Shown: one piece after another, positions 728-25,122 of the stretch
Layout: every line of letters starts with the position of its first letter
How positions within the stretch are numbered: position 1 is the first letter of the stretch
NCBI RefSeq assembly: GCF_000189295.2
Contig: NC_016803.1
Span: 3,660,001 to 3,692,000, forward strand
Direction of reading: 5' to 3'
Origin: Pseudodesulfovibrio mercurii
GTDB taxonomy: Bacteria; Desulfobacterota; Desulfovibrionia; Desulfovibrionales; Desulfovibrionaceae
DNA length: 32,000 nt
Program-made: the position numbers and the translations under genes
The notes under the pieces: generated by a model
The model's input: only the letters and a program-made list of their open reading frames with translations
Told to the model about the DNA's origin: nothing
Database searches by the model: none

Positions 728-1950
728 TCGGCGGAGCGCGTGTCCACCAGGGCGTTGCGCTGGTAGGCGCGCAGGTCGAACTCGGGCAGGGCGGCCAGGA
801 AGTGGTCCATGATGCCGGAGACGATGTCCTCGTGCAGCTCCCAGGCCGTGTCGCTGGTGAAGCAGTAGATCTCGAGCGGCAGGCCGTCGTCGGCGTGGGG
901 CTGGAGCTGGCGCACGAGCAGGGTCATATCCTGGCGGATCTTGGGGTGGGCGCGCAGGTATTCCCGGGCGTAGTAGCGGAACAGGCCGATGTTGGTCATG
1001 CGCCGCCCGTTGAGCGGCGAGGACGGATCGGCCCCGGACGCGGCGTTGGCGGCGTCGATCTCCTTCTGGCGCATGATCATGAACGGGGCCAGGTGCTGGA
1101 CCTTCATCAACCGCTCCTTGAGGGCGGGGTCGGCGAAGCGGATGGACGACTGGTCGATCATGATGGCCCGCTTCATCCGGCGGCCGCCGCTTTGCGTCAT
1201 GCTCTCCCAGTTCTTGAACGGGGTGTCCAGGAACTTGAAGGTCGGGATGGCCGTGACGGTCATGTCCCAGTTCTGGACCTTGACCGTGTTCAGGGCGATG
1301 TCGATGACCGTGCCGTCCGCGTTCATGGCGGGCATCTCGATCCAGTCCCCGGCGTGGAGCAGGTCGTTGGCCGACATCTGGATGCCCGCCACCAGGGAGA
1401 GCAGGGTGTCGCGGAAGACCAGCATGAGCACCGCGGTCATGGCGCCGATGCCCGAGAGCAGGCCCCAGGGCGACTCGCCGAGCATGATGGCCACCACCGA
1501 GACCCCGCCGAGCATGTAGATGAACAGCTTGACGAGCTGCACGTACCCCTTGATGGGGCGGCGGTTGGAGACCTCGAAGGTCCGGTACAGTCCGGACAGG
1601 GCGTCCAGGAGTTTGGCCAGGATCAGGACCACGGCCACGGCCAGGTAGGCGTAGATCAGGTGGTCCAGGACCCCTTTGAGCCCGGAGAAGAATTCCAGCC
1701 CCCAGAAGAAGACCAGGGCCGGGGCCAGGAGCGCGGCCCTCGAGAAGAACCCGGCCTTGAGCAGGAAGTCGTCGAAGCTGTTGTTGGTCCGGTGGGCGAA
1801 GGCCCTGGCCCCGCGCACCAGCAGCGCCCGCGCCAGGAAGAAGGCGATCAGGCCGCCCGCGATCAGGAGGCCGGTCTTGGTCGCGAGGTCCAGGATCGGG
1901 TCCGAGTCGATGAGGGTGACGGGCAGGGTGAGGGACAGGTCGAGGTTCAC
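724..1950 (-). CDS. mechanosensitive ion channel (MscS family) protein
   Basis: N-terminal TM helices are followed by an MscS-type beta domain (GDWIEMPAMNADGTVIDIALNTVKVQNWDMTVTAIPT). I prefer the GTG at 1950, which is preceded by AAGGAG with a 9-nt spacer. The ORF-track ATG at 2064 would leave only 32 bp to the divergent gene. Confidence 0.85.
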   Translation of the reverse strand: MNLDLSLTLPVTLIDSDPILDLATKTGLLIAGGLIAFFLARALLVRGARAFAHRTNNSFDDFLLKAGFFSRAALLAPALVFFWGLEFFSGLKGVLDHLIYAYLAVAVVLILAKLLDALSGLYRTFEVSNRRPIKGYVQLVKLFIYMLGGVSVVAIMLGESPWGLLSGIGAMTAVLMLVFRDTLLSLVAGIQMSANDLLHAGDWIEMPAMNADGTVIDIALNTVKVQNWDMTVTAIPTFKFLDTPFKNWESMTQSGGRRMKRAIMIDQSSIRFADPALKERLMKVQHLAPFMIMRQKEIDAANAASGADPSSPLNGRRMTNIGLFRYYAREYLRAHPKIRQDMTLLVRQLQPHADDGLPLEIYCFTSDTAWELHEDIVSGIMDHFLAALPEFDLRAYQRNALVDTRSAD

Positions 1951-2096
1951 GGGGTGCGGCTCCTTGTGCGCGTGGTCTGCCCCGTTTCTAGCAGATTCCC
2001 CCCGCCTTGAGAACCGCCCGCAGGGGGGCGGACCCGGTTTGACAACGGGCGCGATGTCCTCCATGCTGGCCGGGAAAAAGTCCCGAGGAACGATAC

Positions 2097-3290
2097 ATGG
2101 GTTACTGGTTCATCATCGTCATGACCGTCTCCACCCTGCTGGTCCTGTACCTGGGGTGGCGGCTGATCAATCCGCTGCACATCGGCATCAAGCGCAAGCT
2201 GACGCTCTGGTTTCTGCTGGCCCTGCTCCTGTTCGGGCACCGGCTGACCTGGATGCTGCACCGCACCGACCGGGTCCAGCTGGTGGCCTGCGACTCCATC
2301 GACTGGATCGGGTTCACCTTTCTCGGGTTCATTTCCATCCTGGTGGTCTTCATGCTGGCCCGCGACATCCCGAGCCTGTTCGGGCGCACGGTCTCCGGCG
2401 TGAAGCGGTTGTTCGTCCGGCGCAGCCGGCGGCCCTATTTCATGGGTCCGGACCGAGACCGGCGGCGCTTCCTGCTGAACGCCTCCAACGGGCTCTTCCT
2501 GGCCGCGGCCCTGCCCATGGCGGGCTTCGGGGTGTACAACGCCCGGCGCAGGCCCACGGTCATCAAAAACGACCTGCCCGTGCCCGGACTGCCGGACGGC
2601 CTGGACGGCCTGACCATCGCCCAGATCTCGGACACGCACATCGGTCCGACCATCCGGGGCGGATGGGCGCGCAAGGTGGTGGACGAGGTCAACGGGCTCG
2701 AGCCCGACATCATCGTGCATACCGGCGACCTGGTGGACGGGGCCGTGGACGGGCTCAAGGCGGACGTGGAGCCCTTCGGCGACCTGCGCGCCCCGCACGG
2801 GGTGTGGTTCTGCACCGGCAACCACGAGTATTATTCCGGGGTCTTCGAGTGGCTCGCCGAGACGAGGCGGCTGGGCATGCGCCCGCTGATCAACGAGCAC
2901 GCGGTCATCGACACGGGCCGGGGCAGGCTGCTGCTGGGCGGGGTCACGGACCTGCGCATGGGCGGGTCCGTGCCGGGCCAGGCGTCCTCGCCGTCCAGGG
3001 CCATGGCGGGCGCTCCGCCGCACGACGTGTCCGTGCTCCTGGCTCACGAGCCCGATTCCGTGTACGGCGCGGCCGAGGCGGGCTTCGACATCCAGCTGTC
3101 CGGGCACACCCACGGCGGGCAGTACTTTCCGTACAACTACGTCATCCACCTCTTTCAGACCTTCGTGCGCGGTCTGTACGTGCACGAGGACACGCTGCTC
3201 TACGTGAACATGGGCACCGGCTACTGGGGCCCGCCCATGCGCATCGGCACCGCCCCGGAGATCACCCTGCACACCCTGCGACGGGCCTAG
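2097..3290 (+). CDS. membrane-anchored metallophosphoesterase (calcineurin-like, YkuE-type)
   Basis: Motifs DTHIG, TGDLVD, GNHEYY and GHTHGGQ are present. There are N-terminal hydrophobic helices. GAGGA lies 7 nt upstream of the ATG. Confidence 0.9.
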   Translation: MGYWFIIVMTVSTLLVLYLGWRLINPLHIGIKRKLTLWFLLALLLFGHRLTWMLHRTDRVQLVACDSIDWIGFTFLGFISILVVFMLARDIPSLFGRTVSGVKRLFVRRSRRPYFMGPDRDRRRFLLNASNGLFLAAALPMAGFGVYNARRRPTVIKNDLPVPGLPDGLDGLTIAQISDTHIGPTIRGGWARKVVDEVNGLEPDIIVHTGDLVDGAVDGLKADVEPFGDLRAPHGVWFCTGNHEYYSGVFEWLAETRRLGMRPLINEHAVIDTGRGRLLLGGVTDLRMGGSVPGQASSPSRAMAGAPPHDVSVLLAHEPDSVYGAAEAGFDIQLSGHTHGGQYFPYNYVIHLFQTFVRGLYVHEDTLLYVNMGTGYWGPPMRIGTAPEITLHTLRRA

Positions 3291-3394
3291 ACGAATCAGG
3301 GGGAAGGCCCCCGCGGCCTTTGCGAAGCGGATAGGGTCGCGCCGAAGGCGCCTTAGTGGGATGCAAGGGTGCGAACCCTTGCCCACCGGAGGCG

Positions 3395-3440
3395 AAGTCA
3401 CCCGTCCATCGCCGCGAAACGGCCTTCATGTCCTGATTTC
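3395..3440. repeat. intergenic repeat module C (AAGTCACCCGTCCATCGCCGCG...CTGATTTC)
   Basis: A 22-nt exact match to 22035-22056, with a similar tail. It lies in a gene-free mosaic of short hairpins at 3300-3440. Confidence 0.7.
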
Positions 3441-3453
3441 TCTCACTCTCGAC

Positions 3454-3491
3454 AAAAAAAGGGCCGACGCACGCAATGCGCGCGTCGGCCC
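3454..3491 (-). terminator. rho-independent terminator of the permease gene
   Basis: A 10-bp perfect stem (GGGCCGACGC at 3461-3470 with GCGTCGGCCC at 3482-3491). The A7 run at 3454-3460 is a T7 run on the minus strand. It lies 22 nt downstream of the stop at 3513. Confidence 0.75.
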
Positions 3492-3512
3492 GTTGCCGTT
3501 CGTGCCGTTCGA

Positions 3513-4862
3513 TCAGGCCCGTTCGCGTCGGCGGTTGCGCGGCCGGTCGCCGTGCATGAGCCACGCGCCCGCCACCAGGATGAGCAGGGACAGGACCAGG
3601 AAGTGCAGGAACATGGTCTTCTGGATGGCCCCCCAGATGATGTACAGGGAACCGGCCCCGGCCAGGCAGGGGCAGGCGTAGCGGTTGAAGGGGCCGAGGT
3701 CGGTGAAGGTCTTCATGACCCAGACGTAGAGGGAGATGTAGATGACGTAGAGGAAGGCGATGGGCAGCTCGGAGATGTCCATGAAGTTGCCCCACCAGCC
3801 CGCGAAGTTGCCGTACCAGACCAGGAGCCAGAAGCAGGAGAGGACGTAGCCGATGACCGCCGATAGGGTGGTGCTGTTGGTCAGGGGATTGACCTTGCTG
3901 AACAGGTCCGGGCGCGGGCCCAGGCCGCGCGAGGCGATGGAGAACATGCCGCGCGCCGAGCCCATGATCAGGCCGTTCAGGGTGCCCAGGCAGGAGATGA
4001 TCACGAAAACCGTGAGCAGGGTGCCACCCAGGCGGCCGAAGATGAGGGCGATGACCCGCACCGGGGCCGCGTCGCCCTCGGCCAGGACCTGCTCGTTGGT
4101 CAGCACGCCCGAGATGCCCAGGTAGTAGAGCATGTAGATGCAGACCACGGCGATGGTCCCGACCACCAGGGCGCGGGGCAGGGTGCGCCTGGCGTCCTTG
4201 AGCTCCGCGTTGATGACCGTGGCGATGATCCAGCCCTCGTAGGCGAAGGCCGTGGACAGGGTGGCCAGGGCCAGGCCGCCGCCTCCCTGGGACACGGTCC
4301 TGGCCGCGGTGGTGAAGTTTTCCATGGTCATGCCCGAGTGCATCCCGGTGATGGTCCCGACCACGGCCACCAGGGCCAGGGGGATGAGCTTGATGACGGT
4401 GGAGGCCACCTGCCACCGCCCGGCCAGGACCGGCGAGAAGTAGTTGAGCAGGAAGAAGGCCGTCAGGTAGCCCCAGGCCAGCGGCCACAGGGCGCCCTCC
4501 ACGCCCATCAGTCCCTGGGTGTAGTTGGCCGAGACCCAGGCCAGCACGGCCACCAGGGTGGGATAGTAGATGAAGGTCATGAACCAGGCCACCATGTATC
4601 CGGCGTTTTTGCCGTAGGCCTGTTCGAAGTAGTCCACCACGCCGTTGATCTTCTGGATGCGGGTGGCGATCTTGGAGAAGACGTAGGCGGTGACGACCAT
4701 GATCACGCCGCCGATGAGCCAGGCGGACAGGGCCGTGGGCAGGCTCCCGTTCGAGGCCTCGAGCACGTTGTCCGCCTTGAAGAATACGCCCGAGCCGATG
4801 ACGATGCCCACGACCATGGCGGTCGCGGTCCAGAATCCGTACTTTTTTTGTAGGTTGTTCAT
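3513..4862 (-). CDS. APC-family amino acid permease
   Basis: About 12 predicted TM helices. The N-terminus FWTATAMVVGIVIGSGVFFK is typical of amino acid/polyamine/organocation transporters. Confidence 0.85.
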   Translation of the reverse strand: MNNLQKKYGFWTATAMVVGIVIGSGVFFKADNVLEASNGSLPTALSAWLIGGVIMVVTAYVFSKIATRIQKINGVVDYFEQAYGKNAGYMVAWFMTFIYYPTLVAVLAWVSANYTQGLMGVEGALWPLAWGYLTAFFLLNYFSPVLAGRWQVASTVIKLIPLALVAVVGTITGMHSGMTMENFTTAARTVSQGGGGLALATLSTAFAYEGWIIATVINAELKDARRTLPRALVVGTIAVVCIYMLYYLGISGVLTNEQVLAEGDAAPVRVIALIFGRLGGTLLTVFVIISCLGTLNGLIMGSARGMFSIASRGLGPRPDLFSKVNPLTNSTTLSAVIGYVLSCFWLLVWYGNFAGWWGNFMDISELPIAFLYVIYISLYVWVMKTFTDLGPFNRYACPCLAGAGSLYIIWGAIQKTMFLHFLVLSLLILVAGAWLMHGDRPRNRRRERA

Positions 4863-20468: not shown

Positions 20469-20519
20469 GTCCCGTGGAGTAGACGGCTAATGGTCGGGAT
20501 TCCTAGGCTGCTCGAACTC

Positions 20520-21350
20520 AACTCGATTTGATTTTGTGTCTTCCGTCGGGCCAACAATACAGAAGTATTTTGTCGGAAGAGCTGCAGTGGGGAAAAGGGA
20601 ATGCGATTACCAGCTGCATAATGGAGACTCTTAATGCAGTTAGCTTCTTCTCTTATTTATTTCGGATATCCGCGTTAAATTTTTTAACTATAGCAGCAGC
20701 CATTTTCCGTAGTTCTTTGGCGTGACATTTTTTGTACTTCAGACCGGAACCGCAAGGACAAGAACAGCCTGGCCCATTACCAATCTCAATAAGTTCTTCA
20801 AGGCTTTCTTTCCACTCATATATCCATTCTAGAATATCTGCATCTATATCTTCGAATGTTCTGACACGTTGGAATGAATTTTCTCCATAATTAGTAAAAT
20901 GATACAACGCATTGTTAATTAAGATATAATCATCGATTAGTCTGTTGTTGGATAAATTTTTCCTGATGTTATTAACTTGTTTATCGTTGTATCCATTATT
21001 TTTATCATGAAGGAATAAAATTTTATTCTCTCCACTGCGATTAGGTGTGATATCTATCCAATCACCTTGCTCAGATTCCCATATAGAGTGAAATTCAGCT
21101 TCAATAAAAAGATTCGGTATCATCCATATTTTCCAACCATAAAGGATATTCCCGCCATCTTGTTCAATTTTTTTTTGAACATTGGGAAAGCATTCATCAA
21201 GCAAAGAATATTTTTCTTTTTGTATAGATAAATATACTAGTGGTCCAGTTGATATTTCGGAGCAAAAGTCTTTGACTTCTTCCGTTATATTCGGAGGTAC
21301 GATTTCCATGATTTATTTCTTCACTGACGACTAATATTGATTCTGTGGAT
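20520..21350. mobile_element. AT-rich island (about one-third G+C) carrying one gene; probable horizontally acquired insertion
   Basis: Composition shifts abruptly against roughly two-thirds G+C flanks. The right edge abuts the stop codon (21354) of a native membrane-protein gene. No recombinase or clear terminal repeats were seen. Confidence 0.45.
20653..21309 (-). CDS. hypothetical protein with C-terminal SEC-C metal-binding motif
   Basis: A 218-aa ORF with AT-rich codon usage. The sequence GCSCPCGSGLKYKKCH is encoded at 20722-20769. I do not recognise the N-terminal ~180 aa. Confidence 0.7.
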   Translation of the reverse strand: MEIVPPNITEEVKDFCSEISTGPLVYLSIQKEKYSLLDECFPNVQKKIEQDGGNILYGWKIWMIPNLFIEAEFHSIWESEQGDWIDITPNRSGENKILFLHDKNNGYNDKQVNNIRKNLSNNRLIDDYILINNALYHFTNYGENSFQRVRTFEDIDADILEWIYEWKESLEELIEIGNGPGCSCPCGSGLKYKKCHAKELRKMAAAIVKKFNADIRNK

Positions 21351-23775: not shown

Positions 23776-24324
23776 ATGCCCAACCAGAATTACGTTCTTT
23801 TCAGCGGCGGCGCCCAGGGTGCCGAGAATCAGTTCGGCAAGCTCGCCGAGTACCACGGCCTGTCCGAGGTGAACTTCACCTTCGAAGGCCACCGCATCGA
23901 GCGCACCCGCGGCGTGCGGGTCCTGACCGACGAGGAACTGACCCAGAAGGACGTCAGCCTGACCTACGTGTCCAGGCTCCTGAACCGCAAGTTCACCAAC
24001 GCGGAAAAGATGCGCAAGGTCCTGCAGACCATCATGTGGCAGGTGGACGCCAGCCAGCAGATCTTCGTGGTCGGCACCATCCTGGACGACGGCACGGTCA
24101 AGGGCGGCACCGGCTGGGGTGCGGAGTTCGCCAAGATCTGCAACAAGGAGCTGTTCGTCTTCGACCAGGCCAAGGATGCATGGTCCACCTGGGAGCACGG
24201 CGCGTGGGTCGCGGTGGACGCCCCCAAGATCACCGCCGGCCACTTCACCGGCACCGGCACCCGCTTCCTTGAGGAAAACGGCAAGAAGGCGCTGGAGGAT
24301 TTGTTCTCCCGTTCCTTCAAATAG
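23776..24324 (+). CDS. hypothetical protein, possible SLOG-like (LOG/DprA/YpsA-type) Rossmann fold
   Basis: N-terminal VLFSGGAQGAENQFGKLA and C-terminal FTGTGTRFLEENG resemble the two glycine-rich loops of SLOG-superfamily proteins. AAGGAGAG RBS and native GC content. Confidence 0.6.
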   Translation: MPNQNYVLFSGGAQGAENQFGKLAEYHGLSEVNFTFEGHRIERTRGVRVLTDEELTQKDVSLTYVSRLLNRKFTNAEKMRKVLQTIMWQVDASQQIFVVGTILDDGTVKGGTGWGAEFAKICNKELFVFDQAKDAWSTWEHGAWVAVDAPKITAGHFTGTGTRFLEENGKKALEDLFSRSFK

Positions 24325-24344: not shown

Positions 24345-24384
24345 AAAAGGCGGCCCGGATCACATCCGGGCCGCCTTTTTTCGT
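24345..24384. terminator. bidirectional terminator hairpin, left copy of 40-bp direct repeat
   Basis: Sequence AAAAGGCGGCCCGGATCACATCCGGGCCGCCTTTTTTCGT. It forms a perfect 15-bp stem (24345-24359 with 24365-24379) with loop TCACA. It lies 21 nt after the stop at 24324. Confidence 0.85.
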
Positions 24385-25082
24385 TGCATGTTGTCAAAGT
24401 AAATTGCATATAAAGAAAATGAGTATAGATAGTATTGACAGAAACAGGTTGCGTGATCTTTATCACGAGTTCGATCAATTTTTGGCTTCTATTCATGGTC
24501 TTTATTTAGATGCGTGCATAGGGTTTCGTCTAATAAATGTGAACCTTGATGAGAAACAGTCAGAATTAATAAAACTGATGGGAGGAAAAAGTTCTGGACT
24601 TCTAAGCTTACTCAATTTTTCTCATGAGAAATTCTATGGGGGAGAGTTTGCAGCATCTGGACTACATAGACCAAAAGTAGCAGATATTCGTGAGAGGACT
24701 GAAGAGAATGGTCGCAATGCAAATCTTGTAGGTGGAATGTGTGTGATTTCTTTATATGAGCATTGGGATGCGTATTTGCAAAATGAAATTGCAATAGCGA
24801 TTGGTCTGTCGAACAAGGATGATTTGAAGCATGATTTTTGGGGTGATATGCGAGATTTGAGGAATTATATAGTCCATCACGGAAGAAGAAATAGGAAAAA
24901 ATTGAAAAAAATGAAGCTATTGACTATGTGGCGTGATGATGGCGTTGTGGAGATCAATAATGAAGTAATAGCAATCATATTTAGACATTGCTTTCGGTTT
25001 AGAAATGAAATTCATACAATAAGTTTACCGCCACGACCAACTTTGCGTATCCCTTATTCCTGGAAGTAGTTAACAGGATATG
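24385..25082. mobile_element. AT-rich single-gene cassette bounded by the duplicated terminator
   Basis: About 700 bp at roughly 35% G+C, lying between identical 40-mers at 24345-24384 and 25083-25122. It carries one ORF and no recombinase gene. Confidence 0.6.
24419..25069 (+). CDS. hypothetical protein, candidate HEPN-type RNase (RNxxxH motif)
   Basis: The motif MRDLRNYIVHHG has its R codon at 24860-24862 and its H codon at 24875-24877. The protein looks largely helical and is followed by a basic stretch, RRNRKKLKKMK. The start is either the ATG at 24419 or the ORF-track TTG at 24404. Confidence 0.65.
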   Translation: MSIDSIDRNRLRDLYHEFDQFLASIHGLYLDACIGFRLINVNLDEKQSELIKLMGGKSSGLLSLLNFSHEKFYGGEFAASGLHRPKVADIRERTEENGRNANLVGGMCVISLYEHWDAYLQNEIAIAIGLSNKDDLKHDFWGDMRDLRNYIVHHGRRNRKKLKKMKLLTMWRDDGVVEINNEVIAIIFRHCFRFRNEIHTISLPPRPTLRIPYSWK

Positions 25083-25122
25083 AAAAGGCGGCCCGGATCA
25101 CATCCGGGCCGCCTTTTTTCGT
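25083..25122. terminator. bidirectional terminator hairpin, right copy of 40-bp direct repeat
   Basis: Identical 40-mer to 24345-24384. It lies 18 nt beyond the stop (25140) of the minus-strand sigma-54 activator gene. Confidence 0.85.

Follow-up and report, generated by a model that had tools for sequence, protein, structure and literature searches.

A probable new family of HEPN-like ribonucleases with a conserved Rx4H motif, and its lone member in a horizontally acquired cassette of Pseudodesulfovibrio mercurii ND132

Introduction

DND132_3293, a gene for a hypothetical protein on the chromosome of Pseudodesulfovibrio mercurii ND132, lies as a single-gene cassette in the stretch of 32,000 nucleotides that we analysed here (contig NC_016803.1, positions 3,660,001 to 3,692,000; hereafter the window, from whose first letter all positions are counted). 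Its product belongs to a family of proteins of about 200 amino acids without prior description, in which an arginine and a histidine, spaced as in the HEPN ribonucleases (RNases), are retained in nearly every member. The C-terminal module of these proteins is most likely a divergent, metal-independent endoribonuclease domain of the HEPN type, carried in ND132 by a horizontally acquired single gene with a role in genetic conflict; judged from sequence conservation and a structure model, this reading as a whole holds about half of our confidence. The nearest known group would be the Abi2/Swt1/RiboL-PSP branch of the HEPN superfamily.

An earlier, sequence-only reading of the same DNA had proposed a stand-alone HEPN toxin or abortive-infection gene on the strength of a single RNxxxH motif. 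That hypothesis has come through in part: the conservation of the two motif residues and the solitary state of the gene speak for it, whereas its confirmation by profiles and by fold is incomplete. Below, we set out the evidence on the family and its motif, weigh the assignment to the HEPN superfamily, and then turn to the ND132 copy, the slot in which it lies, and the surroundings of its relatives.

A conserved family and its motif

An exhaustive profile search seeded with three sequences, DND132_3293 and its two close homologues, yielded 722 cluster representatives at E ≤ 1e-3, 269 of them at E ≤ 1e-10 and 11 at E ≤ 1e-30. Word-indexed searches returned only two homologues (54–56% identity) when DND132_3293 was the query and only nine proteins when the family alignment was used. 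Most of the relatives are single-domain proteins of 185–240 amino acids, and the named members come from the Bacteroidota (Chryseobacterium and Ferruginibacter) and from Marinobacterium.

Only three columns of the 82-sequence family alignment are invariant, namely W116, R148, and H153, the last two being the arginine and histidine singled out in the sequence-only reading. The pattern was upheld when 156 sequences were aligned to the family hidden Markov model (HMM), with smaller totals in some columns (151 at R148, H153, and D143; 143 at D31). Tryptophan stands at position 116 in 156/156 sequences and arginine at 148 in 151/151; histidine occupies position 153 in 148/151, the remaining three having lysine, and the spacing of the R and the H is fixed at four residues. 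Around these lie several near-invariant columns: R93 (152/156), G98 (151), N100 (148), R121 (153/156), D143 (142/151), and D31 (138/143). Position 117 is acidic in 146 of the 156 sequences (E in 123, D in 23), and the residue directly after R148 is mostly N or H (65 and 30 of 151), with R (23), I (11), and Q (9) less common; ND132 itself has N149. Judged by this conservation, R148…H153 forms the centre of a conserved, enzyme-like set of residues, and the retention of both residues strongly favours a catalytic, HEPN-like site.

In DND132_3293 the motif reads R148-N-Y-I-V-H153 (24860..24877, plus strand), with the codons of the predicted catalytic arginine and histidine at 24860–24862 and 24875–24877, just where the sequence-only reading had placed them, and both the peptide MRDLRNYIVHHG and the basic run RRNRKKLKKMK that it quoted are present. 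Its description of the motif as lying near the C-terminus was mistaken, for the motif lies at about 70% of the protein's length. The basic stretch that it saw after the motif is real, but the long run is specific to the ND132 allele, the family consensus at this place being GIAKKEVKKCKILKWF. Its caution that one short motif may arise by chance was well founded: in 20,000 shuffles of DND132_3293, a match to Rx4-6H arose in 94%, to Rx4H in 60%, and to RNxxxH in 5.6%. The protein itself holds three Rx4-6H matches, starting at R10, R148, and R193, and those at R10 and R193 are not conserved. In other words, R148…H153 is meaningful because it is conserved among the relatives; taken alone, the motif does not exceed chance expectation.

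An all-helical model and the limits of the module

The AlphaFold2 model computed from the 82-sequence alignment is all-helical, as the sequence-only reading had expected of a mostly helical protein, and is of high confidence (predicted local distance difference test (pLDDT) 95.4; predicted template modelling score (pTM) 0.88), whereas the prediction from three close homologues alone was of low confidence (pLDDT 38.7). Its helices span residues 8–53, 69–73, 87–94, 99–127, 139–153, 156–163, and 181–202. The acidic position 117 falls in the middle of helix 99–127, and H153 is the final residue of helix 139–153.

The protein can be divided into two parts. The N-terminal half (residues 1–95; 24419..24703, plus strand) consists of the 46-residue helix 8–53, with the conserved motif YLD31..G35F, and, after it, an irregular region that contains H83 and R93. 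These approximately 95 residues are family-specific and carry conserved residues of their own, D31, H83, and R93. The C-terminal core module (residues 99–205; 24713..25033, plus strand) comprises helices 99–127, 139–153, 156–163, and 181–202, and would be the HEPN-like catalytic domain; one of its helices bears W-[ED]-x-x-Y-R and the following one G-D-L-R-x-L-R-x-S-I-x-H-N. The division is drawn from distant relatives on plasmids of Klebsiella pneumoniae and Mycolicibacterium, which were found by tblastn with the family consensus. They share the core module and lack the N-terminal half: they match the family HMM at E-values of 1e-23 to 4e-27, only from family position ~78/105 to 206, and their N-termini are unrelated. 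Because these plasmid relatives match the C-terminal part alone, the catalytic module would be the C-terminal ~105 residues. All the weak matches to HEPN profiles described below also fall in this core module.

Evidence for and against a HEPN-type ribonuclease

Anantharaman et al. (2013; PMC3710099) described an Rx4-6H motif that closes a helix and precedes a loop as the hallmark of HEPN domains, together with a polar residue (typically N, H, or D) after the arginine and a conserved acidic residue on helix 2. Each of these has its counterpart in the present family. In the model, the Rx4H motif ends with H153 at the close of helix 139–153; the residue after the arginine is N or H in 95/151 sequences; and the acidic residue of the preceding helix is E/D117.

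When searched against Pfam, NCBIfam, and PADLOC, DND132_3293 reached no family at threshold. NCBIfam gave nothing. The sole Pfam match was HEPN_Apea (E 0.15), with residues 137–166 lying on positions 80–110 of the 136 in the profile, and PADLOC-DB 2.0 gave only PbeC (E 0.016), which we dismissed as meaningless. We also scanned the 82 members singly against Pfam at a relaxed threshold. Apart from TPR repeat models, which match two members that are both fused to C-terminal TPR arrays, the families found in at least three of the 82 members were RiboL-PSP (22 members, best E 2e-4), Swt1 (six), and Cthe_2314 (three), all of which are HEPN families. Ribonuc_2-5A (KEN), HEPN_Apea, and DUF6548 were matched by two members each, and further members added weak matches to HEPN_AbiU2, Abi_2, and HEPN_STY4199, in single members. 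The weak PADLOC matches of family members were to Cas13a, several CARF_HEPN models, and RTasHEPN. In all, the matches below threshold cover eight HEPN families of Pfam and three HEPN models of PADLOC. Matches of five members to the NCBIfam model SigV (best E 0.0057) were set aside as weak. It should be mentioned that the weak matches are collinear: helix 99–127 falls on N-terminal profile positions (RiboL-PSP 17–72 of 191), the motif helix on C-terminal ones (RiboL-PSP 103–169; Apea 80–110 of 136), and the Swt1 match (39–103 of 115) covers both helices. In UniRef, the member P0041 of Marinobacterium alkalitolerans is labelled “RiboL-PSP-HEPN domain-containing protein”, although our own Pfam scan gave this protein no match.

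Several results weigh against the assignment. None of the members tested reaches a curated HEPN cut-off, the best scoring 13–18 bits against cut-offs of 24–28, so that the profile support called for in the sequence-only reading amounts to recurrent weak matches, nearly all to HEPN models, with none at a curated threshold. For RiboL-PSP (PF18735), the listed scores are 12.6–15.2 bits against a gathering cut-off of 28.4, and DND132_3293 itself has no match. The family consensus sequence matched no HEPN model in Pfam, whereas an hhalign comparison of the core module with one DUF3644 (HEPN) protein (probability 0.5%) was uninformative. The structural comparisons point the same way. Foldseek searches of the pLDDT-95 model against PDB and BFVD returned generic helical bundles and nothing significant; the best PDB match (E 0.65) is a helical protein that is not HEPN, and the sole HEPN entry in the PDB list, 4nqf, stands at rank 50 (E 4.4; template modelling score 0.19–0.25). 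Of the helical model that was to unite the R and the H, the all-helical fold and the place of the motif, at the C-terminal end of helix 139–153, were obtained with confidence, but the model drew no HEPN structure from Foldseek. Against PDB sequences, hmmsearch gave no match with the whole-family profile and only apolipoprotein E and designed repeat proteins with the core-module profile. Finally, the conserved D31, H83, R93, N100, R121, and D143 go beyond a minimal HEPN site, and the chemistry could differ.

These results could also be read as those of an all-helical enzyme or nucleic-acid-binding family outside the HEPN superfamily, in which the R…H pair serves a different, larger active site (of a phosphodiesterase or of a nucleotide-modifying or DNA-targeting enzyme) and the HEPN-like matches reflect a short, convergent helix motif. 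Such a family would account for the want of threshold-level profile matches and of a HEPN structure match in spite of a confident model, for the additional near-invariant polar residues, and for the fact that the weak Pfam matches span just 30–70 residues. We nevertheless regard it as unlikely, since the recurrent weak matches, which span at least nine independent models, fall nearly all on HEPN families and on no other clan, and since the position of the motif, the polar residue after the arginine, and the upstream acidic residue all fit the published description of HEPN domains. The result of the structure search counts for less here, because Foldseek is known to perform poorly with simple bundles of helices. 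Taken together, the sequence and model evidence makes membership in the HEPN superfamily probable, roughly two in three, and the family is probably a new one of HEPN-like RNases, for which Pfam, NCBIfam, and PADLOC have no model.

If the HEPN-type reading is correct, R148 and H153, which close the third core helix, would form the RNA-cleaving site with N149 and with the acidic residue 117 of the helix before. The active site would probably be that of a homodimer, as in the characterised HEPN RNases. The N-terminal half, with its long helix and D31, H83, R93, and N100, may serve to dimerise, to sense, or to restrain the enzyme, and fused or adjacent TPR proteins or ATPases may take over the sensing in other genomes.

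The ND132 gene and its Q121 variant

The open reading frame (ORF) that the sequence-only reading had drawn at 24404–25069 is real. It can start at TTG 24404 (221 amino acids) or at ATG 24419 (216 amino acids), with its stop at 25067–25069, and the 216-amino-acid product of 24419–25066 on the plus strand is identical to DND132_3293 over its full length (100% identity). The ATG start agrees with the NCBI annotation and with both close homologues; the coding sequence including the stop codon is thus 24419..25069, with TTG 24404 as the alternative. Searching the literature for DND132_3293 brought up nothing.

DND132_3293 is a horizontally acquired single gene of foreign composition. The GC content is 0.37 over 24501–25000, compared with ~0.65 in the surroundings and 66% in the genome, and at third codon positions it is 0.31 in DND132_3293, compared with 0.91–0.94 in the two flanking genes, which bears out the earlier description of a mini-cassette of foreign composition. 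The contigs that bear family members have mostly 34–42% GC, with two at 51–54%, and this mostly low-GC background fits a low-GC donor for the ND132 cassette.

The 5' leader of the cassette (24385..24418, plus strand) is AT-rich. By inspection, it contains TTGCAT and TATAAA boxes resembling −35 and −10 elements, the latter ending 4 nt before the ATG, and no Shine–Dalgarno sequence; a TATA-like box lies directly 5' of the ATG in all three alleles of the cassette known to us (see below). A promoter consensus scan found one weak site, within chance expectation. From its sequence, the leader may be a promoter, possibly of a leaderless mRNA.

The helix that precedes the motif helix carries, in ND132, W116-D117-A-Y-L-Q121 (24764..24781, plus strand). 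ND132 is the sole sequence of the 156 with glutamine at position 121 (CAA, 24779–24781), where both close homologues and even the distant plasmid relatives keep arginine; the other near-invariant residues are all retained in the ND132 copy. On this comparison, Q121 may attenuate the protein, which would be one way in which a lone toxin-like gene could be tolerated, and it may even mean that the ND132 copy is inactive, a point to be set against an active RNase in this organism. Carried further, the same observation would make the ND132 gene a decaying or attenuated remnant: a toxin or defence gene that was formerly active, was neutralised by R121Q, and is now carried along passively without a present function. 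The uniqueness of Q121, the lone state of a toxin-like gene for which no antitoxin was found, and the weak promoter evidence all favour such a remnant. We consider it distinctly unlikely, as the reading frame is intact and of full length, the other near-invariant residues have all been kept, and dN/dS (the ratio of nonsynonymous to synonymous substitutions per site) in allele comparisons is well below 1, albeit with a saturated dS. Under the reading that we prefer, that of a HEPN-type RNase, the ND132 copy would be a lone insert beside the terminator of a housekeeping-like gene, and R121Q may have attenuated this particular copy.

A slot with a duplicated terminator

The cassette (24385–25082) is bracketed by a perfect direct repeat of 40 nt, which has only these two copies in the window. 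The left copy (24345..24384, plus strand) consists of a GC-rich hairpin and a T-run after it, and serves the upstream gene, which encodes 182 amino acids, as its native intrinsic terminator; the right copy (25083..25122, plus strand), identical to it at 100%, is the duplicated terminator hairpin and ends 17 nt before the stop of a convergent gene for a sigma-54 activator. The repeat contains a perfect 16-bp palindrome and a T-run, and folds with −32 to −37 kcal/mol (z about −7 to −8). The slot is thus the space between the 182-amino-acid gene and the convergent sigma-54 activator gene.

The same slot was found in other genomes. In an ENA contig of a Pseudodesulfovibrio-like organism (L001), it holds cargo 54% identical to DND132_3293, between flanking proteins that are 81% and 91% identical; in three JGI contigs, also Pseudodesulfovibrio-like (L002–L004), the cargo is 55% identical. 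In L002–L004 the hairpin is likewise duplicated to either side of the cargo, in a sequence variant of its own (L002 236–272 and 947–980), and that of L001 is surrounded by two different hairpins. Two contigs without the cargo (L005, ~4560–4607; L006, ~4550–4597) have a single homologous hairpin right after the 182-amino-acid gene, and their slot holds an unrelated, uncharacterised high-GC gene for 537–549 amino acids (L005 5241–6854; L006 4607–6256, minus strand). In a further contig (L007), the slot is an empty spacer of 260 bp. Since the cargo-free contigs L005 and L006 have a single hairpin, the hairpin is the terminator of the host gene, and the right copy is a duplication.

The alleles of the cargo are deeply diverged. 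Between ND132 and L001, dS is 0.52–0.54 in the flanking genes and ~2.4 (saturated) in the cargo, and dN is 0.06–0.11 in the flanks and 0.44 in the cargo, whose dN/dS is ~0.2–0.3; on these estimates, the cargo appears to evolve fast under constraint. With a cargo dS above 2 against ~0.5 in the flanks, the alleles are much older than the split of their hosts, and simple vertical orthology of the three alleles is ruled out. This suggests either insertion or replacement at the slot on more than one occasion, or an ancient polymorphism exchanged by recombination. No recombinase, insertion sequence (IS) ends, or attC core was found at the cassette. An integron cassette could be ruled out for want of an attC core, the junctions being CGT|TGCATG and CGT|ATCG, on sequence inspection only and with no search made for an integrase. 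A metagenome scan with a 16-mer of the hairpin returned 120 terminators, all unrelated, and did not reveal another allele of the slot.

Two more far-reaching proposals would be that the cassette is a new kind of one-gene mobile unit without a recombinase of its own, delivered in trans to the 3' side of a terminator hairpin that it duplicates, and that its cargo defines a new RNase family with an active site larger than the HEPN dyad. The hairpin would then be duplicated upon insertion, in the manner of a CRISPR repeat around a new spacer, and insertion targeted to terminators would explain why three deeply diverged alleles occupy one slot, each flanked by hairpin copies of its own host. D31, R93, N100, R121, and D143 would extend the active site, and a single protein would act as both sensor and effector in antiphage defence. 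We consider this account distinctly unlikely.

The 182-amino-acid upstream gene (23776–24324, plus strand) belongs to no Pfam or NCBIfam family and contains the glycine-rich motifs FSGGAQGAE and GGTGWGAEFA. Genes for proteins with 60–80% identity to it are present at more than 400 loci (in the Desulfovibrionaceae, the Acidobacteriota, and others), nearly all of them without the cargo.

A second low-GC island (20500–21340; GC 0.38–0.42) lies ~3 kb from the cassette and contains an ORF for 218 amino acids (20653–21309, minus strand). Apart from a C-terminal SEC-C metal-binding motif (Pfam E 4e-6), its product shows no recognisable feature; the ORF is flanked by no repeat, lacks relatives in the loci that we examined, and looks like another orphan foreign gene. 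Homology to a SEC-C protein in the locus L101, described below, was ruled out, the similarity being confined to the SEC-C motif itself. In L001, the corresponding place, between a CysS-like gene and msrAB (746–4785), is low in GC and contains an IS1595-type transposase together with an RHS/YD-shell protein; it is thus a second variable region in this neighbourhood.

Surroundings of the relatives

About a dozen loci of the family were inspected for their gene contents, the neighbours being assigned by Pfam and PADLOC. In two of these, the family gene is associated with restriction–modification (R–M) systems: it lies directly downstream of a type II restriction endonuclease (NspV-like) and its methyltransferase in L100, and in an island with a type II methyltransferase and restriction endonuclease, a helix-turn-helix protein, and an rve-type integrase in L101. 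Elsewhere, it adjoins a gene for a WHD-AAA protein of 705 amino acids (IetA-like, E 3e-36), after a TPR-like protein (L087 and L088), or follows 30 bp after a gene for an NYN and OST-HTH nuclease (L085). In L102, it overlaps a gene for 527 amino acids without an assigned function and is itself followed by a DUF4258 gene; in L098, it comes after a gene for 396 amino acids, likewise without an assigned function; and in L103, it has been inserted alone between housekeeping genes. One of the two members with TPR fusions weakly matches the model of the TPR-S sensor.

Members and distant relatives also occur on mobile elements. In Chryseobacterium indologenes (L225; CP074372.1, 3187–9606), a member lies in a prophage directly after imuB/dnaE2, an error-prone polymerase pair, and ~5 kb from the gene for a Bro-N/BstA_C protein; BstA is an abortive-infection protein of prophages. 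The 246-amino-acid relative on the IncF plasmid of K. pneumoniae (L226; 3520–8078) is encoded by a lone gene between two copies of IS110. The 369-amino-acid relative on a plasmid of Mycolicibacterium arabiense (L227; 1–5528) adjoins a DUF3644 gene, with a gene for a CHAT-domain protein ~2.6 kb upstream, and DUF3644 overlaps the EC042_2821 family of HEPN proteins (PMC3710099).

These surroundings match the pattern of many HEPN families, which occur as solos or in variable fusions in R–M and other conflict loci, the comparison resting on ~12 loci and no background statistics. That small number of loci without a statistical background must itself be counted against a role in conflict, as must the setting in ND132, which is not a defence island, the lack of any relative in an IMG/VR scan with the family alignment, and the lack of a match when sequenced phages were searched by tblastn with P0054. 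A tblastn search of plasmid and phage collections with DND132_3293 likewise gave no match. Considering the sequences and the analogous loci together, a defence or toxin role is a plausible candidate.

The sequence-only reading had seen no cognate antitoxin beside the gene, and the wider survey agrees. No second ORF is conserved among the three alleles of the cassette, and the immediate neighbours of DND132_3293 are the 182-amino-acid gene upstream and the convergent sigma-54 activator gene. The former was considered as an antitoxin and ruled out, because it is conserved in hundreds of genomes without the cargo. Each of ten other loci has exactly one family gene, these loci share no neighbour family, and no MNT nucleotidyltransferase gene lies beside DND132_3293 or any relative examined. 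That the protein is nonetheless the toxin of a toxin–antitoxin pair, with an antitoxin that was missed (an antisense or 5' untranslated-region RNA of the type I or III kind, or a protein encoded elsewhere), is very unlikely to us: many HEPN toxins are indeed paired, for example, in HepT–MntA and RnlA–RnlB (PMC3710099), and members of the family are often found in a tight operon whose other gene, on the upstream or downstream side, varies, but the cargo is the sole ORF common to the three alleles, an Rfam scan of the window gave no match, and the contexts have neither a neighbour family in common nor an adjacent MNT gene.

Relationship to known systems

The closest functional analogues would be the stand-alone Abi-type HEPN proteins (AbiD/AbiF and AbiU2) and the RiboL-PSP and Swt1-like HEPN proteins of bacteria. 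AbiD/AbiF (Abi_2) and AbiU2 are likewise stand-alone HEPN proteins with no dedicated antitoxin and are often found in or beside R–M operons, as in L100 and L101. They are larger (their Pfam profiles have ~185–195 positions), have other N-terminal regions, and show no significant sequence match to the present family; moreover, the present family is not known to confer phage resistance. RiboL-PSP-HEPN resembles the family in being its commonest weak profile match (22/82), in its conserved Rx4-6H, its all-helical structure, and its bacterial occurrence, and in the single UniRef name. It differs in that the members tested stay below 28.4 bits, are without a fusion to the L-PSP endoribonuclease or a ParB operon, and have their own N-terminal half of ~95 residues as well as the additional invariant or near-invariant W116, R121, R93, and N100.

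Three other systems are further removed. HepT of HepT–MntA (type II/VII toxin–antitoxin) is also a small RNase toxin of the HEPN type, whose Rx4H active site is assembled in a dimer, but the present family shows no sequence match to it and has no adjacent MNT gene in the loci examined. The HEPN protein of an integron cassette (PDB 3jrt) is also encoded by a lone gene in a promoter-poor single-gene cassette with hairpin-forming repeats at its ends; in ND132, however, the repeats are a duplicated host terminator, with no GTTRRRY core and none of the stem imperfections of attC, and 3jrt was not among the Foldseek matches. The HEPN domains of Cas13, Csm6, and Csx1 share an RNxxxH-type motif, and a few family members weakly match Cas13a and CARF_HEPN in PADLOC, but these are large multidomain CRISPR effectors with CARF domains or domains that bind CRISPR RNA, which are absent from DND132_3293.

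Implications

Under the HEPN-type reading, the role of the family would most likely be in genetic conflict, either by growth arrest or abortive infection upon phage attack or as an addiction-type toxin. If this is true, it would be a compact (~200 amino acids) and widespread addition to the HEPN RNases, useful for the annotation of defence islands and of the accessory genes of prophages, and would offer researchers a small RNase made of a single protein. As a model mercury methylator, ND132 is genetically tractable, so that deletion or expression of the gene is possible in it directly, and its R121Q copy would be a natural test variant of a near-invariant residue. The cassette with its duplicated terminator and deeply diverged alleles poses a separate puzzle, that of how a single gene may move without a recombinase of its own.

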